Below the pieces are notes generated by a model. It had not been told where the DNA came from. It was given only the letters and a program-made list of their open reading frames with translations, and ran no database searches. The translations under genes were made by a program, and so were the position numbers. Below are positions 17,601-52,462 of a DNA stretch of 64,000 bases, in pieces (the first letter of the stretch is position 1; the number at the start of each line of letters is the position of its first letter). Origin of the DNA: an uncultured bacterium (GTDB lineage Bacteria > Acidobacteriota > Thermoanaerobaculia > Multivoradales > JAHZIX01); NCBI GenBank assembly GCA_965368975.1, contig CBDUPA010000019.1, forward strand, positions 84,154 to 148,153, in the 5' to 3' direction.

Positions 17601-20600
17601 TGGGCCTCGCCACGGTGTACCTTCCGGTTCGACCGCGGTCAGCACGCGAGCCGGCAGCTTCCCGGGCATCTCATCGAGCCGAGCCTCGGTCGTGATCAGG
17701 ATCGGGTCGCGCCCGTCGAAGGCCGCCAGGTCCTCCAGCACCGCCTGTAACCGCTCGACCGGCAAGGCAAAGTCGAGCGGCACATAGGCTCCGCCGGCGT
17801 AGAGGACGGCCAGGGCGGCCGTGACGTAGTCGGCACCGCGCGGCAGTAGCACGGCGACCGGGGTTTCAAAGCCGACATCCAATACACGCAGTCGCCCGGC
17901 CAGCGCCTGCGCGCGCTGGTCCAGGCAACGGTAGGTGACGCCCAGATCGAGCCCCCGGCCAGCGCCCGCCACCGCAGTATCGACCGCGTCCGTGCCTGCG
18001 TCCGCGACCCAGACGGCTACCGCGTCCGGGACTTGACGCGCAGCAGCTGCCACGCGCTGCGGGATGGCCTGGAAACGAGCACCATCATCGCGGGGTCTCG
18101 GCTCGAAGGCAGCGTGGTTCCACTCCAGCAGCCACTGGTGACGCTGGGCCACCGTCAGCAGCGGCAAAGCGGCAACCGGGGTCGAGGGTGCGGTCAGCGC
18201 CGCCTGCAGCAGGTGCTCCCAAGCCCCCAGCCAGCGCTGCACGGTGCTGGCATCGAACAGGTCGCTGGCCGCGAGCAGCGACGCGGCGAGGCTGGACCTG
18301 GGCCCGGACGGCACCATGGCCAACCGCAGCACCAAGTCGAAGGTGGCCGACCGCTCCGGCAGTTCGATGGATTCGAGAGTCAGGCCGCCATCCCCGGGGC
18401 CACCCATCTTCAAGGTTCCCCCGGCCAACCCGAGCGCGAAGGCGGCGAGGCCGGCGTCTTGCGCCAGTCGTGGACGCTGCAGCGTCAGCATGGTCTGGAA
18501 CACCGGCGAGCGCCCCGGGTCGCGTTCCGGATGCAGCACTTCGGCCAGGCGTGGGAACGGCAGCTCCGCGTGCGCCAGGGCCGCGACGACGCGGTCGCGT
18601 ACCTGCCGCAACAAGCCGCCAAAGTCGAGCCCTTCCGAGCTTGTACCCAGATCCACCGCGATCGCCAGGGGGTTGACGAAGTAGCCCACCAACGGTGCCC
18701 ACTCGCCCCGGCGACGACCCGCCGAAGGGATGCCGACAATCAACCGCCGCTGGCCAGTGAGGCGACCCAGCAAAACGGCCCAACTGGCCAGCAGTACCGT
18801 CAGCGGCGTCGCTTCGGCGGCGCGCGCAACAGTACTCACCGAAGACTCTTCGAGGGCCAAGCGGCGCGTCACCGCCAGCCCGCGCTGACTCGGCTGTGCC
18901 GGTCTGGGGCGATCAGTCGCCAGGTCGAGCACCAGCGGCACGTTCGCCAGGCGCTGTCGCCACCAGGCTTCCAGCTCTTCGCCCTGGTCGACGAGACAGC
19001 GTGTCTCATCGCGCACGAAGTGACCGTAGTCCGCGGGGAGCGGCGCAAGCTCCAGAGGCAGTACCTCGGCGGCGCACAGCTCACCGAGCTCACGAACCAG
19101 CACGCTCAAGGACCAGAAGTCCGCGATGAGATGGTGAATGACCAACACCAGCACGGCCGAACCGTCCGCCGTCGAGGCCCCCTCCTCCTCGAGCAGGGCG
19201 ACGCGTACCAGGGGCCCTGCCTCGAGATCGAAGGGCCGGTCAATCAGAGCTTCGAGCGCCTCGGGAGTGGCCCGGGGAGTAGCCCCGGCACCGACGACCA
19301 GCTCCGGTACCACCTGTCGTCGCACCCGTCGCAGGTCTCCCTCAGGAGCCGTGAAGGTGGTGCGTAGCTCGCCGTGACGCTGGGCCAAGAGCGCCAGGAT
19401 CCCTCGTAGGCGGGGCTCGCTTGGCGCAGGGGAAATCCGAGCCGCGGCCGCGATGTGATAGGCAGCGGCGCGCGGTGCCTGGCGCGCTAACAACCAGAGG
19501 GCGCGTTGGCCGTAGGAGGGGTCTTCGTCTTCGTCGCCGAGATCGTCCTTGCTCGACGCCGGCGTCTCAGCTTCCCGACCCTGTCCCGGCCCCGGTTGGA
19601 TCGCCGCCAGCAGTCGGGAGGCCAGACCCTTGAGATCCAGATCGCCGAGTAGCACATCGACCGGAACCTCGACACCGAAGTCTTGCTGCACCCCATGCTG
19701 CAGCTGCACGACATCCAACGAGTCCAGGCCCAAAGAGGTGAGCGGCTGATCCGCGCGCACAGCACTCAGCGGCTGATCCGCCGCCGCCGCCAAGCGACGC
19801 TTGAGTTCCAGGCGCAGCAGCGGACCGCGTTCGTCCTCGTCCATGGCCAGGAGCAGCGCGCGATCGATGCGCAGCTCATCCCCGTCGTCTGACACGGTGT
19901 CGCTCTGCCGAGTACCGTCCTGCGGCGTCTCGGACTGCACCGCCGCGGGACGCGCCGCACCGCTCCGTGCCACCACGTTCAAGCTCTCGTCGAGGTAGCC
20001 ACGGCGGCAGGCATGACGCTGGATCTTGCCGCTCGACGTCTTGGGCACGCTGCCGGTGCGCAGCAGCACGATTTCGTGCAAGCGCACCTCGTGCCCCTCG
20101 GCCAGGGCCTGCCGCACGGCGTCGAAGATCTCCTCGTTGGACGCGTCGGGATGGCGCACCACCTCCGCGACATAGACCAGTGCCTCGCCGCCCGCGGCTT
20201 CGTCACCCGTCGGATCGACCGCGAAGGCGGCGGAACAACCAGCCCGCAGGGCACTGTGCGCCGCCTCGGCGGTGGCTTCCAGATCCTGTGGATAGTGGTT
20301 GCGCCCGCGCAGGATGATCAGGTCCTTGAGCCGGCCGGTGACGTAGAGTTCACCGTCTCGCAGGAAGCCGAGGTCACCTGTGCGCAGCCAGCCGTCCCTC
20401 TCTTGGGAAGAGCCGGCTAGATTTGCGTCGAAGGTCTCGGCGGTCACCTCCGGCCGGCGCCAGTAACCACCCGCGACGCTCGGACCGCGCACCCAGATCT
20501 CCCCGACGGTGCCTTCGGCCACGGGTTGCGCGGTCTCGGGATCGACCAGGCGCACGTCCTGCGCGTGACGGTCGACGCGGCCGCTGCTGACCAGGGAGCG

Positions 20601-21818
20601 TGCCGTGCCGGCGTCCGCGCTCGCCGATGTACTTGGCTCGTCTCTGCCCTGCTTCGCCTGCCCCTGCTCCAGCGCCGCGGCGTCGAAGTCTCCGCGCACG
20701 AAGCCGCGTCCGGGCACCGCGCCGGTGACGAAGAGCGTCGCCTCGGCAAGTCCGTAGCACGGGAAGAAGATGTCGCGCCGGAAACCGCAGTCGGCGAAAG
20801 CATCGGCGAAGGCGTCAAGGGTGGCGGCACGCACCGGTTCGGCACCGTTGAAGGCCAGACGCCAACTCGACAGGTCGAGACCCGCTTTCTCTTCGTCGCT
20901 GACCTTGCGCGTGCACAACTCGTAAGCGAAGTTGGGGCCGCCGCTGGTAGTCGAACGGTACTTGCTGATCGCCTGCAGCCAGCGCACCGGCCGCTGCAAG
21001 AATGCGACGGGCGACATGAGGACACAGGAGGTCTGCAGATACAGCGGCTGCAGCACGTTCCCGATCAGCCCCATGTCGTGGTACATCGGCAGCCAGCCGG
21101 CGACGTGGACCTCCTCGCCATGGTCGAAAGCCCGGCGAATCAGTTCCTGATTGTGCAGCAAGTTCCCGTGACTCACCTGTACGCCCTTGGGCGCCGAGGT
21201 CGAGCCAGAGGTGTACTGCAAGAAGGCGAGGTCAGCAGCCTGCAGACCGGGATCCCGCCAGACCTCCGGGGACGCTGGCGTCGGCTCGTCTTCGCCAACC
21301 GCATCGATGTCGAGCAGCGGCAAATCAGCGGGCCAGCCGTCGAACTTGGAGGTCAAGCGCTCAAGGCGCTGGTGCAACGCCGAGGTGGTCAGCGCCAGGG
21401 CCGGCTCGGAGTCCCGAACGATCGACAGTAGGCGCGGCAGGTGGTGCTTGGACCCCGGAGGATAGGCCGGAACGGCGACGGCACCCACGTACAAACAAGC
21501 AAAGAAACCGGTGATGAAGTCGAGCCCCGGCGGGCACAACAGCAGCACGCGCTGCCGGCCCGCGTCGACCGCGAGCAGGCGCTGCGCCAGCGCCCGAGCT
21601 CGGCGATCCAGCTCGGCAGCGCCCAGCGTCTCTTCCACCATTTCCTGCTCGCCGGGACGCGGATCGCGCAGGAACGTGTAGAGCGCACGGCCGCTTTCCG
21701 GAGCATCGCTCTCCCCCGGAACATGGATATCCGCGGCCGCGCGCGTGCGCAGCAGCTCGACCAGGGTGCCACCCGTGAAGGCAGCCCCCTGATCCTTGTC
21801 TACACCTTTCCTAGCCAT
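1..21818 (-). CDS. Hybrid FAAL/NRPS/PKS megasynthase, 3'-truncated at the window edge (>7,200 aa): FAAL-ACP-C-A-T-C-C-A-T-KS-AT-ACP-C-A-T-E-C-A...
   Basis: ATG at 21818 (MARKGVDKDQGAAFTGGTLVELLRTRA) follows a purine-rich GGGAGA RBS. The same minus frame holds at the C-C linker (~14700), the KS cysteine (10376) and the last A3 motif (~542). The track lists no long minus ORF here, consistent with no stop before position 1. Domain motifs were translated by hand. Confidence 0.92.
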   Translation of the reverse strand, partial: MARKGVDKDQGAAFTGGTLVELLRTRAAADIHVPGESDAPESGRALYTFLRDPRPGEQEMVEETLGAAELDRRARALAQRLLAVDAGRQRVLLLCPPGLDFITGFFACLYVGAVAVPAYPPGSKHHLPRLLSIVRDSEPALALTTSALHQRLERLTSKFDGWPADLPLLDIDAVGEDEPTPASPEVWRDPGLQAADLAFLQYTSGSTSAPKGVQVSHGNLLHNQELIRRAFDHGEEVHVAGWLPMYHDMGLIGNVLQPLYLQTSCVLMSPVAFLQRPVRWLQAISKYRSTTSGGPNFAYELCTRKVSDEEKAGLDLSSWRLAFNGAEPVRAATLDAFADAFADCGFRRDIFFPCYGLAEATLFVTGAVPGRGFVRGDFDAAALEQGQAKQGRDEPSTSASADAGTARSLVSSGRVDRHAQDVRLVDPETAQPVAEGTVGEIWVRGPSVAGGYWRRPEVTAETFDANLAGSSQERDGWLRTGDLGFLRDGELYVTGRLKDLIILRGRNHYPQDLEATAEAAHSALRAGCSAAFAVDPTGDEAAGGEALVYVAEVVRHPDASNEEIFDAVRQALAEGHEVRLHEIVLLRTGSVPKTSSGKIQRHACRRGYLDESLNVVARSGAARPAAVQSETPQDGTRQSDTVSDDGDELRIDRALLLAMDEDERGPLLRLELKRRLAAAADQPLSAVRADQPLTSLGLDSLDVVQLQHGVQQDFGVEVPVDVLLGDLDLKGLASRLLAAIQPGPGQGREAETPASSKDDLGDEDEDPSYGQRALWLLARQAPRAAAYHIAAAARISPAPSEPRLRGILALLAQRHGELRTTFTAPEGDLRRVRRQVVPELVVGAGATPRATPEALEALIDRPFDLEAGPLVRVALLEEEGASTADGSAVLVLVIHHLIADFWSLSVLVRELGELCAAEVLPLELAPLPADYGHFVRDETRCLVDQGEELEAWWRQRLANVPLVLDLATDRPRPAQPSQRGLAVTRRLALEESSVSTVARAAEATPLTVLLASWAVLLGRLTGQRRLIVGIPSAGRRRGEWAPLVGYFVNPLAIAVDLGTSSEGLDFGGLLRQVRDRVVAALAHAELPFPRLAEVLHPERDPGRSPVFQTMLTLQRPRLAQDAGLAAFALGLAGGTLKMGGPGDGGLTLESIELPERSATFDLVLRLAMVPSGPRSSLAASLLAASDLFDASTVQRWLGAWEHLLQAALTAPSTPVAALPLLTVAQRHQWLLEWNHAAFEPRPRDDGARFQAIPQRVAAAARQVPDAVAVWVADAGTDAVDTAVAGAGRGLDLGVTYRCLDQRAQALAGRLRVLDVGFETPVAVLLPRGADYVTAALAVLYAGGAYVPLDFALPVERLQAVLEDLAAFDGRDPILITTEARLDEMPGKLPARVLTAVEPEGTPWRGPTPQLQAPQLQAPQLQAPQLQAPEPQQLAYMIFTSGSTGRPKGVQVHHAGLANLIDWHQRRYAIGGPDQPGARRSATLVSGLGFDVAVWDLWSVLTCGATLQVPSDAAVSDPPRLRDWFLTRGAESTFLVSPLAEELMRLSWPRGARLSLLLTGADRLHAAPRPGLPFELVNNYGPTESSVVASYGWVPEGAVGVPPIGRPVDGVAIYLLDRTQRPVLLGAAGEIVLGGAGVARGYLRRAAATAMAFVPQLDVPAAVSTSELACGRRQVGARMYRTGDLGRLRADGRLDFLGRLDHQVKVRGFRIELGEIEAALRQQEGVDEAAVLVVGEEHHARLVAFVVPAPGAGNLDETLLRSQLGRRLPPYMVPSALQRLDALPLTANHKVDRKLLAARAMQTVGEAYEAPRGGLEVLVARAVGEVLQRQHVGRGDDFFELGGHSLLATRLAARLRLELHVEVPLETIFQAPVVADLAATLATIPGVDHAASGAITEAEAGTERTASRTNSAASLAATPLVALSRGASGVPEDLPPLSFGQERMWLLDRLGSATGAYIIPVGLRLRGDLKVRVLERSLALVVARHESLRTVMRTAGGSPVQVIQPAGALPARFPVQVVDLTEVPGVAPPLAAAARQPFDLAAGPLMRATVWRTASDDCVLGLNLHHIAADGWSVAVLLQELEWFYNALCHGGSEALPALQFQFADYAVWQRRLLSSDVVEHELAWWRPRLSGLPVLDLPTDRPRPARPSHRSSLLPLGWSPELLERLERFAAQQDATPFMVLLATWGLLLGRHAGQAEVAIGFPIAGRERPEFEPLIGYFANTLVVRVPAQGNPEGDGFAALLETVRRRVLDVFAHGLLPFERLAEALETRPERSRSPLFQTMLAWNDRVLEPPALHGLDVSAAPVLPAEKFDLTLMVQRWPEGLRGELTFARDLFDDATALRWVDDIANLLEVILAQPDTPLEQLPHLQLPSLPAGARRQALLRWSELPLSVPAPPVAIEQASVEQVPIGEVGIEQASIEEVTYEEAPTVRPPGLRELPLSYSQQRLWLLDRLQVGSAAYNIAAGLRLIGTFQVARLSAALDHLVACHEALRTVFVSNTSDEPRQIVQEPAALRLPVIDLRRLTLSHAHAAEADAVARQLGAAHGGRSFDLSRGPVLKALLLRLASDRHHLHLNVHHIAADGWSLGLMMRDLQAGWQAGQPGDQSGDQPNDQPGERPGERQGARHTESPARLQYPDFALWQRGFVARRAQAQLDWWSETLEGLEVLELPTDRPRPPRRDPDASGGSVHQHWPATLVHGVRALARRGGATLFMVLTAAIQVLLARHSGQTDIAIGTPVAGRQHVETESIVGLFLNSLVLRAQVTPRLSFLQLLERVRSAAIGAFGHQDVPFEALLERLRPERDPARTPLFQVFVNLLNLPPVTPTLAGLEVDLLTPPELPAKFDVTFYIEELADGGLRWELHYDAALFDAARMEDWPRQLATLLTAAVADPDQQLAALPLRTVEAAQLLPDPRQILETSWHGPIHQHFAEHARRQPERPLVRDRHGVWSYGEVAVVSDALAAWLVAHEVRRGDRVAILTWRAAVLLPAVLGVLKAGAALVLLDPAWPAVRRAQMLDAARPSAVLELLPPAAETAVLSSLAPARDEEGPSVATWCQQRTASLLQLPVGSQAETLDFVQKLPTTGLPTTGTAVPDVEIGPEDLALVAFTSGSTGVPKGIEGRHGPLTHFLPWQCATLEMGPDDRFSLLSGLGHDPLQRDLFTPIFLGAELAVPDPRDLTAAGRLAAWMAEVGVTVAHLTPALGQVLCEGDTIRAQAVRAQAVRAQPVRLPALRRVLLVGEALRGRDVERLRQLAPSVTVVNLYGSTETQRAVSYHVASAADVARPVLPLGHGMRDVQLLVLDRDHRPAGVGELGEIAVRSPHLARGYLDDPRATALAFTPDVVHPDAARTQSQIRLYRSGDLGRYLPNGEVAFAGRRDKQIKIRGFRVEPAEIEAVLVALPEVREAVVLAQGPSSSTGLRGPQLGVASRLVAFLVPQAGSAGAVATGGIDPGAVRAALLQRLPAYMVPAAFEVLDRLPLTANAKVDRRALAQRLPALASSALASSVLASSVLASSAQVVPGAVSGAELAAAPLLPGSTPEERLERDIEALWAELLEVPAVDPEASFFDLGGHSLLLVRLHARLQQLAGRELPLVELFAHPTVRGQARYLARLLETSEPAVRAQVLQASRPAGASASASAGVGESAVPIAIVGMAGRFPGAPDVDAFWRQLLDGREAVRRFTDEELLAAGLPAELVTHPKLVRGRGVLDGVEDFDAEHFGLTPRQAQLLDPQVRLLLETARLALDDAAVDPERFAGSIGVFAGGTLSTYFLHYLQRDPNLLREVGAYQLAMGADRDYFVTQLAYRLGLSGPAVSVQTACSTALVAVHLACRALRAGDCDLALAGGVSIKVPQVTGYLYEEGGIDALSGRCRAFDAAADGTVWGSGAGLVALRRLDDALASGDPIHALVLGSAVNNDGKHKAGFTAPSIEAQARVIAAAHADAAVEAATIGYVEAHGTGTQLGDPIEVSALNRAFAEVDDRRPLGAVKASIGHLGAAAGIAGLIKTVLALRHGVVPPTAGFETANPAAPFEEGPFYVSGQAESWPSSELPRRAGVSAFGLGGTNAHVVLQQAPSAIAGAVADEPKPPAESAAGDAWHLLLLSAHTPAALHTTCEDLATWLDEQVVSERIAPDLAAPDLADVAHTLRSGRPRWPTRRLVVCRDVAGAMRALRSRDVPAHLRAITAGSARPRVAFLLPGQGSQFPSMGAALYETEPEYRRWIDEGAEHLRSRLGLDLRTLLHAPADDSEAAAQLRRTRWAQPALLLVEVALARLWQHWGIEPVALLGHSVGEYAAATLAGVLSLRDALDLMALRGELMEPLDGGAMVSVAAAGSDIEARYLQASQDEAGNPGERVEVAAVNAPSVCVLTGPVAAVEAMQARLEADGISCRRLPTDHAFHSAMMEPICAAFAEAVGRVELRPPTLPYISNLTGDWVTAEQTQDPDYWARHLRRSVRFADGVECLSQLEDLVLLEVGPGRTLGSLARQTLRQDGLQPKSDVPSRKPVTAIASMRRQSDAAEAQEDDRARALEALGRLWLAGADVDWQRFDGSATQTPRRRHLPGTAFQRQRHWVELDGIAPLWAGETGPAQPHSAPSMPLRVDAEVEVASSAVAPSDIDDTVAGRIAALLGRLLGVPEVGAQDDFFELGGDSLLATRFLSLLRDEIGAELSLPELFTASTPHALAGLLEARDPGLSAAAEADRVIPLDAVDLDLDLLPPRPQHPPLSFAQERLWFLERLEDSGTAYNLPAALELRGRLDVARLRAALRRVVERHEVLRTRLPELDGRPYQEILPASSPIVRASTALPVVDLGALAGSSSEVAAIAVGTLADQLLARAAGRRFDLSRGPLLRTVLLRLPSAPDSATKHLSEPKHRLLIELHHTVADGWSWHRLWLEVGAFYGDEAASIPPLPLQYADFAVAQRRQLQGERLQDLLRVWRRRLDPPPPPVELPVDRPRSTVDTAEAARGARLLETLTPAETAAIEELTRSSGLTGSGLTVFMVLLAAFGELLSRHGGAGDPATDLAVGTPVAGRTQQQLEPLLGVFVNTLPLRLDLGGSTTSGGPTVAEVLERVRAVTLEAYAHQDLPFSQLVAALQPERRLDREPLIQTLLVLQNTEAPSAAPVGLPGVEVRPLSVAAGGAKYDLSLSVTPLRDGAGVRTLRLDAEYRPALVDATTIRRLLGHYRQLLAGFAAEPQQRLRRLELLSPAECHQLAQEWHGPASLRKATGDILASETLASLVAASAGRVPEAVALVAGSRHVSYRELWRRAGRIATGVADRIAPAEALTGSEAEPRVGVALPRTPLLVESLLGVLRAGAAYVPLDPAYPAERTVFMLQDSGAALLLISDGGESSSGVEVVDPALLVEVSLAEVSLAEEEQRTGASLADSLDNFPDHSRPERLAYVIYTSGSTGKPKGVAIEHRRAVARMRWAGQTFTAAQLAGTLAATSVCFDLSVFELFTPLVHGGSVVLAANALQLPHLRAAARVSLVNTVPSALTALVALEQDGEAALPPALAAVNLAGEPLPPTLAGQLLQLRPRVELRNLYGPSEDTTYSTGTRLKSTPDGVRVTLGLPLPGTTAAVLDRHARVQPVGVAGDLHLSGGGLARGYLGRPALTAERFLPAVPVLATALAAGLATGLAAGRPCRHESDRDGAALRIGGSRMYRTGDLVRRLADGRLDYLGRLDHQVKLRGFRIELGEIESLLAGHPEVRRAVTVVHAGTRLVAYVEPAAERGDSVANSPDEDGLRRRLLAHLGTRLPVYMVPSRIEMLETLPQLPNGKVDRSQLARRSLPMEGTAMEGTAMDGAAQDTALERTAEASATLGSTGARLAEVWQQVLGLETLPGADAHFFELGGDSILSIQVVSQARKAGLTLTPRQLFEHPTLGALAALLQQSGVEQGSGGVAVAESGPAFATTPSSDRLLEGPVPLTPIQHWFLRPGVRDPHHFNQAWWLRDAGDPPLDPALLRRVLRQLPERHDALRLRFDQRPGKDGGTWQQRYASRAEARQLDSLVHVDLERLAPAARESEARRLGEALQGRFDLARGPLLRVLLLTYGTAPAELLWCAHHLVVDGVTWRLLLSDVAAGYAALASAAGSEFGAAARSSASFRDWAQAQVRLAHDSRTLDGALCWLEPWLGSRPSTILPTAVEAAEPQRTASLDVEFDRELTTRLLGPVSSRLRMKVDEVLLAVLARAWPDRAESTALWLDLERHGRDLPGVECSDVAGWFTALFPVLLPLDEAPEAAADLRSVRRQLRALPEGGIPFGIVRYLGPPHASKALANLPPRHLVFNYLGQAGGAGLTGSGRAGSGQSGSGEAGRWQPLDRPVRSLRSPRQPRPHAYEINGAVIEGRLCLRWTYPDGAEAGASMPARAERFRQRLAELVQYGDSAQALRLWPEDVPLAGFADNPAETAQLLSLQERAGGAIEDLYPLAPMQRGMIFHSLQAPTDGAYVGQMLLELEPQTDGSFDAAALPLAMAAAWRRLLARQPMLRTGILGLDRSQPLQAVYRQVPLPWSRIELDGLRTDDCAWALDQLLAADRRHGFDLQRPPLLRLLWISRAEEGPALLCSHHHLLLDGWSMALLIRDLAGDLAHYAAGSRARATGEGRRGASTSLAPARPYRDFIAWLAERDLAERDPAAAETFWRTTLDGLRAPTRLAVQRPVEASTAEAGTDDRSETGKQDGGHFARSVHLSAAQAEAVSAAARHAGVTLNTWVQAAWGLVLGRFSGDRDIVFGAVSSGREADLSGIDQMVGLFINTLPVRLSLAPSQRVTSWLHQQQTRQAQVREHEYVALADVQRWSPLPAGEQLFDTLLVFENYPVDRLASQQAGQDLRVRRAHMREQTNYPLTLIAEPAAGADGAAAGLHLKLDAQWQAFEPVAVGALLHQLHWLLGTVLPAAVDSETRLGALPALPPTERQALLFEYQGLPVPHSPDPSLHGPSLHGPVVAQATQRPDAVALLAGRHHLSFAALVCGARAVAGRLRAAGVGLDDRVGLLAERTPRALTGILGVLMAGAAYVPVDPQAPPSRLQQLAADAAFAVVLTDAEHAALAAELGVATVARLEDATSDDAPQDDADEVDAAAVAVEQGLVHPQAAAYVIYTSGTTGAAKGVVISQASAGGFAATFRRQLALTPADRLMLFAPLSFDASVLQTFPALGAGAGLLIPRQPRLLVGRALLGYAARHGLTVLDLPAALWRAWVDDTAAHGLPLPRRLRLCLTGGESVPHAHLRTWAGLAPWPMDFLSSYGPTETTVTATAIEARNLDVLRRSAGAAPASQGNLRLGHPLAGVR
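2700..7670 (-). other. NRPS module C-A(Ala)-T-E, predicted D-Ala
   Basis: C motif HHTVADGWS. A code DLFNNALTYK (Ala). T motif GGDSI, typical before E domains. E motifs PLTPIQHWF, HHLVVDGVTW, LERHGRD, GWFT and FNYLGQ. Confidence 0.85.
7780..10900 (-). other. Minimal cis-AT PKS module KS-AT-ACP (malonyl-CoA, no KR/DH/ER)
   Basis: KS triad motifs VQTACST, EAHGTGT and KASIGHL. AT motifs PGQGSQ, GHSVGE and TDHAFHS. ACP motif FFELGGDSLL. There is no room for reductive domains between AT and ACP. Confidence 0.88.
11000..13080 (-). other. A-T didomain with an alpha-aminoadipate reductase (Lys2)-like A domain
   Basis: AFTSGSTGVPKGIEGRHGPLTHFLPW, SGLGHDPLQRDLFTPIFLGA, VTVAHLTPALGQVL and VNLYGSTETQRAVS. 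Code read as DPRHLVLRAK. T motif FFDLGGHSLL. Confidence 0.8.
11281..11340. repeat. 15-bp in-frame tandem repeat x4 (LASSA/LASSV) in an A-T linker
   Basis: gccgacgaagccagt accgacgaagccagt accgacgaagccagt gccgacgaagccagc. Confidence 0.9.
13150..16020 (-). other. Tandem condensation domains (C-C) with no A or T domain between them
   Basis: LSFGQERMWLLDRL...HHIAADGWS (~15615), a short linker, then LPLSYSQQRLWLLDRL...HHIAADGWS (~14080). Confidence 0.85.
16180..18100 (-). other. A-T didomain, probably Leu
   Basis: YMIFTSGSTGRPKG. Code read as DVWFLGNVVK, close to the Leu code DAWFLGNVVK. T motif FFELGGHSLL. Confidence 0.7.
17536..17597. repeat. 15-bp in-frame tandem repeat x4 (PQLQA)
   Basis: ggggcctgta(a/g)ctga repeated just before the A3 motif. 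Confidence 0.9.
18150..19830 (-). other. ACP followed by the first condensation domain (lipo-initiation)
   Basis: ACP motif LTSLGLDSL (~19720). C domain begins PSYGQRALWLL and has active site HHLIADFWS (~19120). Confidence 0.85.
20000..21818 (-). other. Fatty acyl-AMP ligase (FAAL) starter domain
   Basis: Motifs AFLQYTSGSTSAPKGV, GWLPMYHDMGLIG, SGGPNFAYELC, FNGAEPV, PCYGLAEATLFVTG, RTGDLGF...GRLKDLIILRGRNHYPQDLE and PKTSSGKIQR. Confidence 0.9.
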
Positions 21819-21890: not shown

Positions 21891-22898
21891 TCAGCCCTTG
21901 TGCCTTTGGTGCGCCGCGAGCGCCGACTTGGCGATACCTGCGGCGTCGAGGCCAAAGTGCGCCAAGTGCACGTCGTGCGTTCCGAGAACCGGCGAGAAGG
22001 TATCCGGAATTCCGAGGATCTTCATCGGTGTCGGCCGGCGCGTGGCCAGAGTCTCGGCCACCGCACCACCCAGGCCGCCATAGACGTTGTGCTCCTCGAC
22101 GGTGAGGATCAGGCCGGTCTCCTCTGCCGCCTGCTCCAGCAACTCGGCGTCGATCGGCTTGATGCTGTACATGTCGATGACGCGTGCGTCGATACCCTGC
22201 TCGGCCAGCTTGGCCGCCGCCTTCAGGCTCTCCGGCACCACCGCGATGCCGGCGGCAACCAGCGTCAGGTCCTTGCCGTCGCGCAGTACATGGCCCTTGC
22301 CGATCTCGAAGCTGGCGTTCTCGTCGTAGACCTGCTCAGCATCGTCCATACCGATGCGCAAGAAGGTCGGCCCCTCGTACTCGACGCAGGCCATCGTCAG
22401 GTGGTAGGTCGCCACACCGTCGGCCGGTGCCACGACGGTCATGCCGGGCAGCGCACGACCAATGGCGATATCCTCAATGGCGTGGTGGGTCGGACCTGAG
22501 AAGCCCGACTGCATGCCGGCGAAAGTGCCGAAGATCTTGACGTTGGTGTTGTGGTAGCAGATCTCCAGGCGCACCTGCTCACAAGCACGCATCAAGGCGA
22601 AGTCGGCGAAGGTGTTGACCATCGGAATCTTGCCGCGCAACGCCAGGCCCGAGGCGACGCCGATCAGGCTGGCCTCGGCGATGCCGACGTCGATCCAGCG
22701 GTCCGGGAACTCGTCGCGAAAGTCGAAGCCGAAGAAGTCGCCCAGGTCGGCCTCGACCGACCACACGCGTTCGTCCTGCTGGCCGGCGTGCAGCTGGCCC
22801 AGACGGTTGGTGCGCACGGTCGACAGGCCGTACTTCTCGATCCACGCGGCACTGCCGGGTGCCGGCTCCGTTGTAGGAGGTGTCAGACGGCGACTCAT
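21891..22898 (-). CDS. Transketolase C-terminal (pyrimidine-binding) subunit, paralog 2
   Basis: GIAEASLIGVASGLA, FADFALMRACEQVR, GPTHHAIED, IKPID and TVEEHNVYGGLG. Its start overlaps the upstream stop (ATGA, 22895-22898). Confidence 0.92.
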   Translation of the reverse strand: MSRRLTPPTTEPAPGSAAWIEKYGLSTVRTNRLGQLHAGQQDERVWSVEADLGDFFGFDFRDEFPDRWIDVGIAEASLIGVASGLALRGKIPMVNTFADFALMRACEQVRLEICYHNTNVKIFGTFAGMQSGFSGPTHHAIEDIAIGRALPGMTVVAPADGVATYHLTMACVEYEGPTFLRIGMDDAEQVYDENASFEIGKGHVLRDGKDLTLVAAGIAVVPESLKAAAKLAEQGIDARVIDMYSIKPIDAELLEQAAEETGLILTVEEHNVYGGLGGAVAETLATRRPTPMKILGIPDTFSPVLGTHDVHLAHFGLDAAGIAKSALAAHQRHKG

Positions 22899-23755
22899 GA
22901 TGCACTCCGCGGCCGGATGGCCTCCAAATCCTTGAACGCCTGCTCGCGCTGCTCGGCATTCATCTTGCCATAGTGCCAGGCGTGGTTACCCTCGGCGTAG
23001 GAGATGGACTTGCCCTTGACGGTCTGCGCGATGATCACCGACGGCTTACCGGAGGTGAACGGAATGTCGTGCAGCGCGGAACTCAGCGCCTCGACATCGT
23101 GGCCGTCGATCTCGCGCGCGTCCCAGCCGAAGGCGCGCCACTTCTCGGCGAACGGCTCCAGCGACATGATGTCCTCGGTCTTGCCGTCTTCCTGCACGAA
23201 GTTGCGGTCGACGATCGCCACCACGTTGTCCAGCTTGTAGTGTGCGGCGGTCATCGCGGCCTCCCAGATCGAGCCTTCCTGGCACTCACCGTCGCCCAGA
23301 ACGACGTAGACACGCCGGTCTTCGCCGTCGTGCTTGGCGGCCAGCGCGATGCCGTTGCCTACGCCCAAACCGTGGCCCAGCGAACCGGTCGCCAGCTCGA
23401 TGCCCGGAATCGCCTTCGACGGATGGCCAGCCAGACGGCCGCCGGTCTTCTTGTACTCCTTCAGCTCCTCCACCGGGAAGAAGCCACGCTCGGCCATGGC
23501 GGCATAGAGCGACGCGCTGGAGTGCCCCTTGCTGAAGATGAAGTAGTCGCGGTCTTCCCACTTCGGGTTGCTGGGATCGACGCGCACCACGCCGTCGAAG
23601 AGCAGCACGGTGAGGATCTCTACCGACGACATCGAGCCGCCCAGGTGGGCGCCCGGCGAGTCGGCGCACATCCGGACGATGTGTTCGCGCAGGGTATAAG
23701 CGATGGCGCGCAGGTCGTCCGCGGAGGCGGCATTGGTGGCGCTGGCGGTAGGCAT
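22895..23755 (-). CDS. Transketolase N-terminal (ThDP-binding) subunit, about 286 aa
   Basis: AHLGGSMS, SKGH, LAGHP, TGSLGHG and the ThDP motif GDGECQEG...DRN. ATG at 23755 follows AAGGAG. The track's longer 24106 start overlaps the aminotransferase and was rejected. Confidence 0.92.
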   Translation of the reverse strand: MPTASATNAASADDLRAIAYTLREHIVRMCADSPGAHLGGSMSSVEILTVLLFDGVVRVDPSNPKWEDRDYFIFSKGHSSASLYAAMAERGFFPVEELKEYKKTGGRLAGHPSKAIPGIELATGSLGHGLGVGNGIALAAKHDGEDRRVYVVLGDGECQEGSIWEAAMTAAHYKLDNVVAIVDRNFVQEDGKTEDIMSLEPFAEKWRAFGWDAREIDGHDVEALSSALHDIPFTSGKPSVIIAQTVKGKSISYAEGNHAWHYGKMNAEQREQAFKDLEAIRPRSAS

Positions 23756-23846
23756 AGGTTGCTCCTTCAGGCGTATATTGACGATGCTCTTTCGATATGT
23801 TTCTTCAGCAATTCCGGACCAGATTAGGCAGTTCAGAACAGCCAGG

Positions 23847-25181
23847 TCAGAACAACACGACCTCGCCCTCCCAGGGCTCGCGGTACTCGATCGACTTGGC
23901 GTAGCGCACGAACTCATCGCGGTTGGCGAACACCTTCTCGAACGCCGCGGCGTACAGGTCGACGTTGGCCGGCTCCATGAAGCTGGCCATACACAAGCGC
24001 TTGCCAACCAGCATCGTGCTGCGAATGACGTCCAACGTCTGCGGGTAGTCGTGGATGTCGTACTGAATGTCGCGCGAGTTGTGGCCACACGACCACGGGC
24101 AGCCACGGCCGTACCCGTCCTTGTTCTGGAACAGGTGCTGCCCCGGCAGTGGACGCGTCTGGTAGTGGATCAGCGGCACGCCCTCGGCCGCCATCACGTC
24201 GTCCAACGCCTTGCGCATCACGCCGGCATCCAGATCGAGGCCCGCCTCCTCCGGCTTCACGCGGAAGCGGAAGTGGTGGTAGACGTGGGTGCTGCCCTCG
24301 GGCACGTGGGGCGCTTCGAGTCCCGGTATGGCATCGAAACAAGCACGCAGCCGATCGGCGCCGGCTTGAACCCGCGCGATGTAGTCGTCGTAGCGGTCGA
24401 GCTGGCTGAGCGTGAACGCCGCCAGGATGCTGCTGAAACGGTAGTTCCAGCCCATGGTCATGGCGTTGTAGTCTCGCTCCTGCCCCTTGACCACCTTCTC
24501 ACCGAACATCTTGACCATGTCGGCTCGGTCGCGCAGATCGCTGTCGTTGGTGGTGAACAGACCACCCTCGCCGGCCGTCGCGAGGTTCTTGCCGGCCATG
24601 ATGCTGTACGTGCCCATGTCGCCGACATTGCCGGCCTGCTTGCCCTTGTAGAGGGCACCCGGTGCCTGTGCGTTGTCCTCGATCACCTTGACGCCGTGGC
24701 GGTGGGCGATCTCGATGATCGGATCCATGTCCGCCGGTAGGCCGTGGAGATGCACCGCGATGATCGCCTTGGTGCGATCGGTGATGTGCTGCTCGAGCTT
24801 CGTCGGATCGAGGGTATAGGTGCGCGGATCGACATCGGCGAACACCGGTAGGCCCTGGTGGTGGATGATCGCCGAGGCCGAAGCCAGGAACGACAGCGCC
24901 GGCACGATGACCTCGTCACCCGGCTCCACTCCCGCCGCCACCACCGCCGCGTGCAACGCCGCGGTACCGCTGTTGACCGCGATGCAGTACTTGCTGCCCA
25001 CGTAGTTGGCCCAGCGCTCTTCGAGCGCCGGCACGTCGTGCGTGTTGATCCAGCTCAAGTTGCCGGTACGCAGGCTGTTCGAGACGGCTTCGATGTCAGC
25101 TTCATCGACGATCGGCCAGGTCTCGGTGATCGCACCCGTGGCGACAGCGGGCGAGCCGCCGTGAATCGCTAGTTGACTCAT
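23847..25181 (-). CDS. DegT/DnrJ/EryC1/StrS family PLP-dependent aminotransferase
   Basis: NSGTAALH, GDEVIVP, TKAIIAVHLHG, VIEDNAQAPGA, PLP-lysine motif SIMAGKNLATAGEGG and GWNYR. AGGAG RBS upstream. Confidence 0.93.
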   Translation of the reverse strand: MSQLAIHGGSPAVATGAITETWPIVDEADIEAVSNSLRTGNLSWINTHDVPALEERWANYVGSKYCIAVNSGTAALHAAVVAAGVEPGDEVIVPALSFLASASAIIHHQGLPVFADVDPRTYTLDPTKLEQHITDRTKAIIAVHLHGLPADMDPIIEIAHRHGVKVIEDNAQAPGALYKGKQAGNVGDMGTYSIMAGKNLATAGEGGLFTTNDSDLRDRADMVKMFGEKVVKGQERDYNAMTMGWNYRFSSILAAFTLSQLDRYDDYIARVQAGADRLRACFDAIPGLEAPHVPEGSTHVYHHFRFRVKPEEAGLDLDAGVMRKALDDVMAAEGVPLIHYQTRPLPGQHLFQNKDGYGRGCPWSCGHNSRDIQYDIHDYPQTLDVIRSTMLVGKRLCMASFMEPANVDLYAAAFEKVFANRDEFVRYAKSIEYREPWEGEVVLF

Positions 25182-25192
25182 TCCATGTGCTC

Positions 25193-26197
25193 CTAAGCTG
25201 ACTTTCGTTCCAGCACCTGCTTGGCGGTGGCGGCGATCGAAGCCGCGTCCATGCCGTACCAGGGCAACATCTCTTCTTGCGGACCAAACTTCTCGGGGAA
25301 GGCGTTGTCGAGCCCGACACGTGCCAGCGGCACCGGAGCGTGCTGCATCAGCACCTCCGCGACCGCGCAGCCCAACCCCGCGTAGATGTTGTGGTCCTCC
25401 ACCGTCACCGCCGCGCCGCAGGCCGCCGCCGCTTCGGCGATCGCCTCGCCATCGAGCGGCTTGAGCGTGTGCACGTTAACCAGCCGAGCCCCGATACCGT
25501 CGGCTCGCAGCTGCTCGACCGCCGCTTGCGCCTCGGCCACCATGAGGTTGCCGGTGGCGAAGATGGCAATGTCGTCACCGTCGCTCAGTTGCACGGCCTT
25601 GCCGATCTGGAAGTCGTAGTCGTCCTGGTACACCTGCGGCGTCTCGGCACGGCCGACCCGGATGTACACCGGACCGTCGTGCTCAAAGGCTGCTCGTGTC
25701 GCCTTGTACGTCTCGATCGAGTCAGCCGGCGACAGCACCACGAAGTTGGGCAACGCCCGCGTGATCGCGTAGTCCTCGATGCAGTAGTGCGTGCTCGCCG
25801 CCAGGCCACCCGAAGTGCCGGAGTAGTAGCCGATCAGCTTGACGTTCGAGTTGTGGTAGGCGATGGCCAGTCGCACCTGCTCGCAGGCGCGCATGATCAG
25901 GAACGAAGCGAAGGAATTGACGAAGGGAACCTTACCGCGTTTGGACATGCCCGCAGCGCAACCAACCAGGTCGGCCTCAGAAATACCCAGTTGCACCCAG
26001 CGCTTCGGGAACACCTCGTGGAAGGGAACCGACGGCATGCCGAGGTCACCTTCCAGCGAGTAGAGGCGCTCGTCCTCGTAGGCCAGTTCCAGCTGTGCCA
26101 TGCGGCACACTTGGCGGCTGGAAAGCCCATAGTGGTCGAGCCATGCCCCGGAGCCGGGACGCAACTCTTCCGGCCGAGACCAGTTGGTCTGAATCAT
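25193..26197 (-). CDS. Transketolase C-terminal (pyrimidine-binding) subunit, paralog 1
   Basis: GISEADLVGCAAG, FASFLIMRACEQVR, STHYCIED, LKPLD and TVEDHNIYAGLG. ATG at 26197 follows GGAGGA. Confidence 0.9.
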   Translation of the reverse strand: MIQTNWSRPEELRPGSGAWLDHYGLSSRQVCRMAQLELAYEDERLYSLEGDLGMPSVPFHEVFPKRWVQLGISEADLVGCAAGMSKRGKVPFVNSFASFLIMRACEQVRLAIAYHNSNVKLIGYYSGTSGGLAASTHYCIEDYAITRALPNFVVLSPADSIETYKATRAAFEHDGPVYIRVGRAETPQVYQDDYDFQIGKAVQLSDGDDIAIFATGNLMVAEAQAAVEQLRADGIGARLVNVHTLKPLDGEAIAEAAAACGAAVTVEDHNIYAGLGCAVAEVLMQHAPVPLARVGLDNAFPEKFGPQEEMLPWYGMDAASIAATAKQVLERKSA

Positions 26198-26260
26198 CAC
26201 TGCTCCTCCAATTGTAGATGCCCGATAGCGGACCAAAGTAAATCAAGGGAAACGGCGGCC

Positions 26261-26288
26261 ATTGTATCGCTTCGCGGAACGAGTTCAA
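26261..26288 (-). promoter_or_regulatory. Candidate sigma70-type promoter for the transketolase/aminotransferase operon
   Basis: The minus strand reads TTGAAC-N16-TACAAT about 64 nt upstream of the 26197 ATG, in the divergent intergenic region. Confidence 0.4.
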
Positions 26289-26610
26289 GCTTCAGACTAC
26301 CGATTCGCGCTCAACTGCCATTCCGGATCCCCGAAAGACACGAGCTGATACGGAGATCGAGGTCGGAAGTTGGGTCCGTAGACCAGTCCCTCGTCCTCGA
26401 GCACGGACCACTCTTCACGCCAGCCCAGCCGTCGAAGACAGCGACGGCCGGAGCCGGAGCTCACCGTATGGGCCGTCGGCGGCCCGTGCACCGGCGGTGG
26501 ATGCCCAAGGATCTCGAGAACCGCGACCTGCCTGTAACGGCGTCACATCCGGCGAAGTCCCATGAGCGAGCCAATCGGATAGACTCGAGGCCTCTCAACC
26601 GAGACCGAAA

Positions 26611-27427
26611 ATGAAACCGATCTCAGCACCGGAGTCTCCCGACATGCCGGCCGGCCAGCCCGCCTGGGCGACTCCTGTCTCGCACGACGCTCACGGAACG
26701 TTCGCCGACCTGGACCTCGACGGCATGCGGCACCGCCTGCGCTGGATTCCACCGGGAACCTTCCTGGCAGGATCTCCCCCCAGCGAAGGCGGCCGCTATG
26801 CCTGGGAAGGGCCACAGACCGAAGTGACGCTACAAGGCTTCTGGCTGGGGGAAACCCCCTGCACGCAAGACGTCTGGCAAGCGGTGACCGGAGACAATCC
26901 GAGCAAGTTCGTCTCTCCGCGACGCCCGGTCGAACAGGTCAGCTGGGACCAGTGCGTCGCCTTCCTGGAGCAGTTGAAGACCCGAGTGCCGTCGCTAGAG
27001 CCGCGCCTGCCCACCGAGGTGGAGTGGGAATATGCCTGCCGTGCCGGAACCTCGACCAGCACCTATGCCGGCGAGTTGGAGATCCTGAGCCCGTACAACG
27101 CGCCACTGCTCGATGAGATCGCCTGGTACGCGGGCAACAGCTGCCACGACTTCGACCTGGACGCTGGTGTCGACGCGACCCGCTGGGCAGACAAGCAATA
27201 TCCGGGCGACCAGGCCGGTACACGCCTCGTCGCGTCGAAGCGGCCCAACCCCTGGGGTCTCTATGACATGTTGGGCAACGTCCTGGAGTGGTGCCAGGAC
27301 ACGGTCGGCTCCAAGCGCGTCAGCCGTGGTGGTTCCTGGAGCTACAGCGCTCGCTGCCTGCGCGCCGCCTACCGTGGCTGGTGGCCACCCAACTCGCGCT
27401 TCTGCGATCTCGGCTTCCGGCTCGCGC

Positions 27428-27435
<8 letters not shown>
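26611..27435 (+). CDS. Formylglycine-generating enzyme (FGE-sulfatase/SUMF1) domain protein
   Basis: RWIPPGTFLAGSP, ETPCTQ, PVEQVSWD, RLPTEVEWEYACRAG, PNPWGLYDMLGNVLEWC and RGGSW...GFRL. It lacks the two-cysteine catalytic loop of true FGE. Confidence 0.88.

Positions 27436-52458
<25,023 letters not shown>

Positions 52459-52462
<4 letters not shown>

Follow-up and report, generated by a model that had tools for sequence, protein, structure and literature searches.

The stretch of DNA analysed here (hereafter the window) comprises 64,000 nucleotides of contig CBDUPA010000019.1 from an uncultured bacterium of the class Thermoanaerobaculia, phylum Acidobacteriota (assembly GCA_965368975.1; contig positions 84,154 to 148,153), and is occupied, at approximately 70% G+C, almost entirely by megasynthase genes on the minus strand. 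Between a nonribosomal peptide synthetase (NRPS) of 8344 aa and a megasynthase beginning with FAAL-ACP-C at position 21818 lies an operon of four genes, which encodes one alpha subunit and two beta subunits of a split transketolase together with an aminotransferase. The genes are as follows.

25193..26197, minus strand: beta', transketolase subunit with the Pyr and C-terminal domains, 334 aa, first gene of the operon (Pfam PF02779/PF02780)
23847..25181, minus strand: aminotransferase (AT) of the DegT/DnrJ/EryC1 family, Fic25-like, 444 aa (Pfam PF01041, E 6.4e-85)
22895..23755, minus strand: alpha, transketolase N-terminal subunit binding the diphosphate of thiamine diphosphate (ThDP), 286 aa (Pfam PF00456, E 4.1e-46)
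21891..22898, minus strand: beta, transketolase subunit with the Pyr and C-terminal domains, 335 aa (Pfam PF02779/PF02780)

The genes are transcribed in the order beta', AT, alpha, and beta, followed by the FAAL-ACP-C megasynthase. The frame at 21891-22898 (minus strand) matched Transket_pyr and Transketolase_C of Pfam with E-values of 2.9e-28 and 5.2e-31, the open reading frame at 25193-26236 (minus strand) matched the same two families with 3.6e-24 and 1.2e-24, and that at 22895-23743 (minus strand) matched Transketolase_N with 4.1e-46. The start codon of beta' was placed at the ATG at 26197, which is preceded by a Shine-Dalgarno-like GGAGGAG and gives the 334-aa form, and that of alpha at the ATG at 23755, giving 286 aa. 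Only 11 nt separate beta' from AT, 91 nt separate AT from alpha, the stop codon of alpha and the start codon of beta overlap by 4 nt (ATGA), and 72 nt lie between beta and the FAAL gene. From beta' to the FAAL gene, a promoter/terminator scan detected nothing resembling a terminator. Beta and beta' share 44% identity (142 of the 322 residues aligned, E 1e-100). The initial annotation, which was made from the sequence alone, had described two C-halves of 334 and 335 aa with a single N-half, and both Pfam and the translations bear this out; its wording that the betas flank alpha needs correction, as the 444-aa AT, left unmentioned there, also lies between beta' and alpha.

Split transketolases are usually treated as fixed one-to-one pairs. 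In the genome carrying the window (7.13 Mb in 59 contigs, 99.32% complete), searches with the PF00456 profile and the alpha protein detected a single split Transketolase_N gene, namely this alpha. The other matches to the alpha search were a full-length transketolase (contig C20) and two weak ones, within an E1-like frame of 943 aa on C3 and a DXS-like frame of 730 aa on C4. Seven Pyr domains were found in the same genome with PF02779, and the only frames of the size of a split subunit were the two in the window (364 and 349 aa). A second alpha gene outside the window had been named beforehand as an observation that would speak against a shared alpha; these searches of a nearly complete genome found none. 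Instead of a one-alpha/one-beta pairing, one alpha to two betas was observed in this genome as well as in all of the 11 related contigs that could be checked (see below).

Related cassettes and the age of the duplication

A protein search with beta' returned 77 clusters at 56-76% identity, mostly of metagenomic origin, and a second group at approximately 44-52%. Members of both groups occurred on contigs of the sizes 79094, 64046, 67505, and 17559, and four more such matches were found later; these matching contig sizes hint at paired betas. The names attached to members of these groups included Thermoanaerobaculia and Acidobacteriota, plus one metagenome-assembled genome (MAG) of Geminicoccaceae. 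A contig scan with the beta' alignment gave generic split transketolases at 37-46% identity, and no close relative was among the matches listed. The best non-self match in 401 genomes of the phylum of the window was 44% identical, and no match at E<=1e-85 was detected in 400 genomes from the phylum to which a Bryobacteraceae MAG belongs, a sample that may overlap the former. As neither sample contained a close relative, the family of this transketolase trio is rare among the genomes searched.

We then turn to metagenome contigs, for which a DNA pattern for N-x-F-x-x-F-x3-R-[AG]-C-E-Q, a motif carried by both betas, was used. The pattern matched twice in the window (0 expected), in none of 127 loci from other genomes, and in 94 stretches of metagenome contigs, many of which had two matches on the same strand 2.9 or 3.6 kb apart. 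When the proteins of the window were mapped onto 76 loci, the order AT-alpha-beta-...-beta' recurred. With 5 duplicates removed, along with 10 loci whose transketolases belong to other clades, beta' was found on the same contig for all of the 11 beta genes followed by at least 3.7 kb of DNA, alpha stood directly upstream of the beta gene wherever at least 0.9 kb of upstream DNA was available (18/18), and beta was present for 9 of the 10 beta' genes preceded by at least 3.7 kb. On each of the 11 contigs that carry both betas and also extend upstream of beta, alpha had exactly one match, even at a tblastn threshold of E<=1.

The shared cassette comprises approximately 11 genes. In order, it has a GNAT-like or unknown gene, a gene resembling the editing domain of LeuRS, acyl-CoA ligase/aldehyde dehydrogenase (ALDH), an M24 hydrolase, and AT; AT is followed by alpha, beta, one or two racemase-like genes, an iron-type alcohol dehydrogenase (Fe-ADH), beta', and a second Fe-ADH or an MFS transporter. 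Thus ordered, the related cassettes have an Fe-ADH gene between beta and beta'; beta always adjoins alpha, and beta' is 0-3 genes off. Two loci (L198 and L197) possess a compact version, beta-beta'-unknown-MacB, which in L198 is followed by FAAL-ACP-C-A. The first megasynthase modules of the window and L198 are collinear (FAAL-ACP-C-A) with 41% identity, a likeness that is uninformative on the substrate. Most of the related cassettes are free-standing, with no NRPS genes within their 10-kb flanks and often with an MFS transporter.

We inferred the phylogeny of the betas from 90 rows by a quick method (only 3'-complete sequences of at least 290 aa) and from 46 rows by a careful method. In the 46-row tree, beta and beta' sequences grouped together with supports of 99/95, and were separated into the beta clade (100/100) and the beta' clade (89/80); the two were sister clades in the 90-row tree as well. 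The window beta fell in the beta clade with 100/100, and the window beta' in the beta' clade. Furthermore, the same sub-groups appeared in both clades, i.e., L135/L148, L152/L207, and L142/L163/L168 plus the window. As sister clades with mirrored sub-groups indicate an old duplication and co-inherited copies, we regard, on the basis of these trees, that the duplication predates the spread of the cassette and that both copies travelled together. The dN/dS ratios ranged from 0.10 to 0.46 in 24 comparisons (6 pairs of related cassettes by 4 genes), and dN was usually smallest for alpha when the pairs were more diverged; these ratios show that beta and beta' are both under purifying selection. The old duplication kept under selection that the initial annotation had postulated is supported by the sister clades, the dN/dS values, and the cofactor residues retained in both betas (see below). 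It had also proposed a tree with housekeeping split transketolases and those of the Vzb and Azi systems: beta and beta' proved to be sisters apart from the generic enzymes, and the Azi, Vzb, and Fic transketolases were replaced by a stand-in chosen by gene context, L047 of Streptomyces sp. NPDC006450.

Two sets of sequences in and near these clades deserve mention on their own. P0096 and P0098, annotated as 'transketolase family proteins' of Lentzea-type actinomycetes, were placed inside the beta clade and have lost the N-terminal G-S-x-x-W motif described below. A third clade of alpha-beta pairs (L153, L156, L165, L166, L201, L203, L204, and L205) bears the R-A-C-E-Q motif with the N-terminus M-x-N-S-I-R-E-A-Y-G-K-H. 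In its scored rows, which represent only five of the eight loci plus the separate, long-branched L206 as the sixth, the equivalents of Arg358 and His461 (E. coli numbering) are kept and Ala occupies those of Asp469 and Arg520 in 5 of 6. This clade looks like another uncharacterised group of specialised transketolases.

The solved proteins closest to alpha and beta' were those of the split transketolase of Carboxydothermus hydrogenoformans (6YAK for alpha, E 1.2e-82, 280 bits; the C-terminal chain of 6YAJ for beta', E 4.1e-69), which has the same domain split. This enzyme is of the housekeeping type and, in contrast to the set studied here, comprises one alpha and one beta without the N-terminal G-S-x-x-W extension. 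It is reported to be a functional heterotetramer with the active sites at the subunit interfaces (PMC13663882). An obligate asymmetric heterotetramer, alpha2-beta-beta', would have two different active sites in each particle and couple two steps physically; one alpha gene per pair of beta genes, the co-inheritance of beta and beta' (11/11 and 9/10), and the mirrored tree topology would all agree with such a particle. However, two homotypic tetramers acting as separate enzymes in the same pathway would be expected to be co-inherited just as well, and the constant adjacency of alpha concerns beta, not beta', which on one contig (L170; see below) is found with no beta nearby. We consider the asymmetric assembly possible but rather unlikely.

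Conserved residues in the alpha and beta subunits

The initial annotation had drawn attention to an extension at the N-termini of the betas, and its motifs, PGSGAWLDHYGLS and PGSAAWIEKYGLS, are present in the two translations. The common form, G-S-x-x-W-[VIL]-x-x-[YH]-x-L-S, sits just N-terminal of the generic 'ATR' motif, at a position that is gapped in the generic split enzymes. G, S, W, and L were each found in 31 of the 33 beta sequences, and W, Y, and L in 42, 37, and 39 of the 43 beta' sequences, respectively. The Trp and Tyr of the motif are present also in L047, a Streptomyces enzyme with one beta. Far from being private to this locus, as had been supposed, the motif recurs throughout the two clades, in dozens of uncultured bacteria, and part of it is shared by a one-beta enzyme of the DADH type (see below); the alignments mark it as a family signature of the two clades. 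A role as a docking device specific to the sharing of alpha was discarded, since the one-beta L047 has the Trp and Tyr as well.

Transketolases form their active site from two domains, the diphosphate-binding one (here in alpha) and the pyrimidine-binding one (here in beta or beta'). We scored residues in an alignment of 33 beta, 43 beta', and 6 generic split sequences. The cofactor-activating Glu was found in all of the beta and beta' sequences (33/33 and 43/43), the equivalents of Phe434 and Phe437 in 32/33 and 43/43, and that of His473 in 30/33 and 43/43. The positions lining the substrate channel differ between the two clades. The Arg358 equivalent is Arg in all 43 beta' sequences and Val (30) or Ile (2) in beta; the Arg520 equivalent is again Arg in all 43 beta' sequences and Val (17), Met (10), Leu (3), Arg (2), or Gln (1) in beta. 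Consistently, the window beta has Val and Met at these two positions, and the window beta' keeps both Arg. The His461 equivalent is mostly Phe in beta (30) and Tyr in beta' (37), that of Asp469 is Ser in 29 beta and Ala in all 43 beta' sequences, and that of Ser385 is deleted in both clades. Altogether, of the five sugar-phosphate contacts (the equivalents of Arg358, Ser385, His461, Asp469, and Arg520), beta retains none and beta' two, whereas all five are kept in each of the 6 generic split enzymes. The two arginines among these contacts hold the phosphate of the substrate in ordinary transketolases. The loss of the contacts argues against a pentose-phosphate reaction and not against ketol transfer.

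Alpha is a conservative member of Transketolase_N. Its ThDP/metal motif GDGE...N (G150-D151-G152-E153 and N181) was invariant among the 23 aligned sequences, and so were H33, H74, H107, and H257 in the motifs GAH, SKGH, GH, and WH (23/23). We take these four to correspond to His26, His66, His100, and His261 of the E. coli enzyme, which are catalytic or donor-binding. The simplest reading of the alignments would be that the cofactor half, alpha, stays the same while each beta provides a different substrate channel, and the clade-specific channel residues fit the suggestion in the initial annotation of two enzymes with different acceptors. The beta of L047 has R, H, Y, and R at four channel positions. 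As beta' resembles this DADH-type enzyme at both arginines, it is more likely to be beta' that takes a carboxylate-bearing acceptor.

The same positions are known from enzyme engineering. Changes at D469, R358, and R520 of the E. coli transketolase alter its acceptor scope. Here, D469, R358, and R520 are naturally replaced by Ser, Val, and Val/Met in beta, and Asp469 by Ala in beta', so that the pockets are changed by nature where engineers mutate for non-sugar aldehydes. The engineered E. coli variants are single enzymes; in contrast, two natural pocket variants share one alpha in one operon here. The changes L382A and D469L of the E. coli enzyme have been linked to aromatic acceptors, and a natural split enzyme among ten studied carries them (PMC13663882).

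One may suppose that only one of the betas is catalytic and the other is a non-catalytic or regulatory paralogue, such as a scaffold or a decoy titrating alpha. Both betas lack the canonical sugar-phosphate contacts at the Ser385, His461, and Asp469 equivalents, and the end branch leading to the window beta is long (0.60-0.73 in the two trees), which is also a point against the reading proposed below. On the other hand, nearly every sequence of either clade retains the activating Glu, the two Phe, and the His473 equivalent, and purifying selection acts on both betas to a degree similar to that on alpha and AT. Moreover, the window beta departs from the positions conserved in at least 95% of its clade at 8 of 104, and the window beta' from those of its clade at 5 of 96, all of these changes being mild (for beta, A/T, A/S, A/G, and L/I). 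A single catalytic beta is, in our view, very improbable.

Relation to DADH-type pathways and a proposed two-step extension

The solved proteins closest to AT were 8GYH/8GYI/8GYJ (E 4.9e-107, covering residues 1-425 of 444). The structure 8GYJ is Fic25, which converts the transketolase product ADOH to 2,6-diamino-5,7-dihydroxyheptanoic acid (DADH) in the pathway to ficellomycin, and the second match, 8Y96, is Ser5 (PMC11726168). In the azinomycin pathway, the transketolase AziC5/C6 adds two carbons to N-acetylglutamate semialdehyde, and amination then yields DADH (PMC9570651). As in a DADH module, the split transketolase of the window has a DegT aminotransferase of the Fic25 type as its neighbour, AT lying between beta' and alpha. 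Likewise, the systems for azinomycin (AziC5/AziC6 and AziC7), ficellomycin (Fic25), and vazabitide (Vzb9) have a split transketolase beside a DegT-family aminotransferase. An alternative assignment to a pathway of the 3-amino-5-hydroxybenzoate (AHBA) or aminoshikimate type, as with Rif15A/B and a RifK-type aminotransferase, was rejected: instead of aminoDAHP synthase, aminoDHQ synthase and dehydratase, a kinase, and a phosphatase beside the transketolase, the genes between the megasynthases are only beta', AT, alpha, beta, and the FGE-like gene described in the last section, the families of those pathways not having been searched genome-wide. AHBA synthase (1B9H) matched AT with an E-value of 4.4e-38, far weaker than Fic25.

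L047 was the only generic locus with an aminotransferase homologue beside alpha and beta. Its genes at 5582-20978 encode an M20 protein, a LysX-like protein, AT, alpha, beta, a BtrH_N-domain protein, a LysW-like frame, a LysY-like protein, and a second M20 protein, followed by FAAL-ACP-C. The LysW-like frame at approximately 14189-14344 matched TIGR01206 with an E-value of 1.9e-11. By its gene content, L047 is a carrier-protein cluster of the DADH type with one beta, and may build a DADH-like residue into a lipopeptide. AT, alpha, and beta stand in the same order as in the window, and the FAAL-ACP-C genes follow them in both. The beta of L047 was sister to the clade of beta and beta' (92/84), but its branch is long (1.17) and it was the only representative, picked by gene context. 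Together with the Fic25-like AT, this sister position makes the hint at Vzb/Azi transketolases in the initial annotation an apt one.

In contrast to the Azi, Fic, and Vzb systems, which have one beta, there are two betas here, and in place of the LysW carrier system there are genes for an acyl-CoA ligase, an ALDH, two Fe-ADHs, a DoeA-like M24 hydrolase, and racemase-like proteins. No LysW-like carrier was found in the own genome with TIGR01206 at E<=0.01, a search that was positive in 4 of 14 reference genomes used as a control. Neither an ATP-grasp protein nor a semialdehyde dehydrogenase was among the accessory genes scanned, the LysX/Z/Y families not having been searched genome-wide. All of the accessory genes of the shared cassette have homologues in the own genome, adjoining NRPS genes: two racemase-like genes and one Fe-ADH lie on the contig of the window (C19) downstream of the last megasynthase, and the ligase, the ALDH, the M24 hydrolase, the second Fe-ADH, the LeuRS-editing-like gene, and two MacB genes lie between NRPS genes on contig C29. 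The NRPS fragment of C29 ends at the A3 core motif, and the terminal fragment of C19 starts later in an adenylation domain; this is consistent with C29 and C19 being neighbours but does not show it. By sequence, no solved structure is related to the racemase-like protein, whose only match in NCBIfam was a 'hypothetical protein' subfamily. A stand-alone protein conserved in the cassette (C29:25165-26907 and L142:3688-5016) has the editing (CP1) domain of LeuRS/ValRS as its only recognisable region, and could deacylate tRNA mischarged with the amino acid of the pathway.

We propose, as a reading we hold to be reasonably probable, that alpha is shared by two betas of an old duplication to form two transketolase sites with different channels, which would serve two steps of one DADH-like pathway. 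Alpha would pair with each beta, giving with beta' a channel that retains the two anion-binding arginines and with beta a channel in which both positions are hydrophobic. The acyl-CoA ligase and ALDH would make the starting aldehyde without an amino-group carrier protein, and one of the alpha/beta pairs would put a two-carbon ketol unit on it. The Fic25-like enzyme would convert the new ketone to an amine, as for DADH of azinomycin, ficellomycin, and vazabitide, and an Fe-ADH would oxidise the new primary alcohol to an aldehyde, which the other alpha/beta pair would extend a second time. The resulting amino-polyol acid would feed the neighbouring lipopeptide synthetases. The order of extension, amination, oxidation, and second extension is suggested because the related cassettes have an Fe-ADH gene between beta and beta', and the same gene lends circumstantial support to the two successive C2 additions suggested in the initial annotation.

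Several points, besides the long branch of the window beta, weigh against this proposal. The order of the steps is read from gene order, and either beta might act first. The E. coli numbering and the roles of channel and cofactor residues in the betas are those which we assume from alignment to generic split enzymes. The binding of alpha to beta' is weakly suggested by a predicted complex, with a median ipSAE of 0.56 (0.53, 0.56, and 0.68 in the three runs; 0.00 for the best of 3 controls), a partner pLDDT of at least 92, and agreement of the runs in 100% of contacts. Although 116 of 157 solved complexes attained the pass mark, as against 2 of 215 mismatched pairs (approximate counts, as own alignments were used), scores of 0.60 or less were obtained for only 18 of the 157 solved complexes and for both of the passing mismatches, and the pass may reflect the likeness to the solved 6YAK/6YAJ. 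The metagenome contig L170 (6475 bp) is the sole exception to the pairing of the betas: it carries ligase/ALDH-M24-AT-FeADH-beta' with neither alpha nor beta in the 4.8 kb upstream, so that beta' is not always beside alpha; either alpha and beta are located elsewhere or this lineage uses beta' differently. As for the accessory genes, no exact overlap was found between the ends of C29 and C19, and 10 other contig ends carry open frames of more than 3 kb. Finally, the best NCBIfam matches of the accessory enzymes were DoeA (ectoine hydrolase; 336 bits against a cut-off of 575), GbsB for Fe-ADH (choline dehydrogenase; 336 bits against 550), and, far below its cut-off, a CaiC-like carnitine-CoA ligase. 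Apart from the missing alpha and beta, L170 has no racemase-like gene at the usual place.

These sub-cut-off matches to the catabolism of compatible solutes keep a catabolic reading open for the free-standing cassettes, which are the majority, have no NRPS genes within 10 kb, and often carry an MFS transporter. The cassette would then break down an amino-polyol or a compound like a compatible solute by deamination, ketol cleavage, oxidation, and CoA activation, and its adjacency to NRPS genes would be incidental. However, the cassette genes are located at three places in the own genome, all directly beside NRPS genes; L198 and L197 couple beta and beta' to MacB, and L198 also to FAAL-ACP-C-A; and the nearest characterised relatives of AT and of the transketolase lineage are biosynthetic and of the DADH type. 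The LeuRS-editing-domain-like gene, too, would better fit self-protection against an amino-acid analogue. We regard catabolism as quite unlikely. Parallel routes, in which the two betas extend two aldehydes to yield two building blocks for the two flanking assembly lines, appear unlikely to us, if less so. The channel residues do differ between the betas, and the cassette does have one megasynthase ending upstream of it and another starting, with FAAL, downstream, but there is a single aminotransferase and a single ligase/ALDH per cassette, and the two-beta set occurs also in free-standing cassettes with no NRPS.

The two-step reading with a shared alpha has partial precedents. Two-gene transketolases act outside central metabolism as Rif15A/B (rifamycin), the steroid desmolase DesAB, and SqwGH of sulfoquinovose metabolism (PMC6002545, PMC3735941, PMC11659671). 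The logic of one subunit with two paralogous partners is that of an unrelated enzyme family in Bacillus subtilis. There, one glutamine amidotransferase is common to the anthranilate and aminodeoxychorismate synthases. To our knowledge, Rif15A/B, DesAB, and SqwGH each consist of one alpha and one beta with no second beta reported, and their substrates differ from those proposed here. We found no report of a one-alpha/two-beta transketolase, of a ThDP enzyme with a shared subunit, or of this cassette in the full-text literature, subscription journals being outside the scope of that search. A conserved one-alpha/two-beta set would show that the substrate-binding half is exchangeable in nature with the cofactor-binding half kept constant and, if true, would be a template for the engineering of modular carboligases. 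The cassette itself would be an uncharacterised relative of the DADH pathway, the source of the precursors of the aziridine warheads of azinomycin and ficellomycin, and would do without the amino-group carrier protein. Dozens of uncultured bacteria of soil and sediment harbour the cassette, which points to an unknown amino-acid building block, and its approximately 11 genes can be expressed and assayed. More tentatively, and with less confidence than in the two-step reading as such, alpha might be time-shared in an iterative two-step chain extender. Uncultured Acidobacteriota would then have a widespread carrier-free way of making long amino-polyol amino acids, and the transketolase would be the first natural ThDP enzyme that swaps its substrate-binding half.

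Flanking genes and base composition

The remaining features of the window around the operon are the following.

26198..26610, no strand: intergenic DNA separating beta' from the divergent FGE-like gene, the presumed promoter region of the operon
3..21818, minus strand: start of the NRPS-polyketide synthase (PKS) megasynthase, FAAL-ACP-C-A-T...KS-AT..., running off the window (translation and Pfam)
27428..52462, minus strand: NRPS upstream of the cassette, 8344 aa (open reading frame and translation)
26611..27435, plus strand: FGE-sulfatase/EgtB-C-like protein, 274 aa (Pfam PF03781, E 6.2e-35)

In the intergenic region, one sigma-70-like site was found at 26288-26261 (minus strand) against a mean of 0.9 in shuffled sequences, i.e., at the level of chance. 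A search for expression data on the locus found none, the six runs listed containing only 0.08-0.11 of the sampled words. No homologue of the FGE-like gene was found beside the related cassettes, and the gene may not belong to the system; 8 nt at its 3' end are shared with the end of the 8344-aa NRPS gene. The last residues of this NRPS (27428-52462, minus strand) are thioesterase-like as judged by eye from the translation only. The megasynthase frame beginning with FAAL occupies 66222-105971 of C19, and the NRPS-PKS region on this contig extends over at least approximately 140 kb. The huge frames on the same strand (C19:20260-105971 and 27428-63999 of the window) encode approximately 13,250 (with the FAAL start), 2,346, 12,943, 8,344, and more than 3,847 aa.

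The G+C content was 0.643-0.652 at 22001-28000, which covers the transketolase cassette and the FGE-like gene, versus 0.67-0.73 elsewhere in the window. The cassette of low G+C content may have been acquired separately from the NRPS genes. Short tandem peptide repeats were observed in the 8344-aa NRPS (e.g., ASGVPAQ four times), and APQLQ repeats within the region of an adenylation domain of the FAAL megasynthase.

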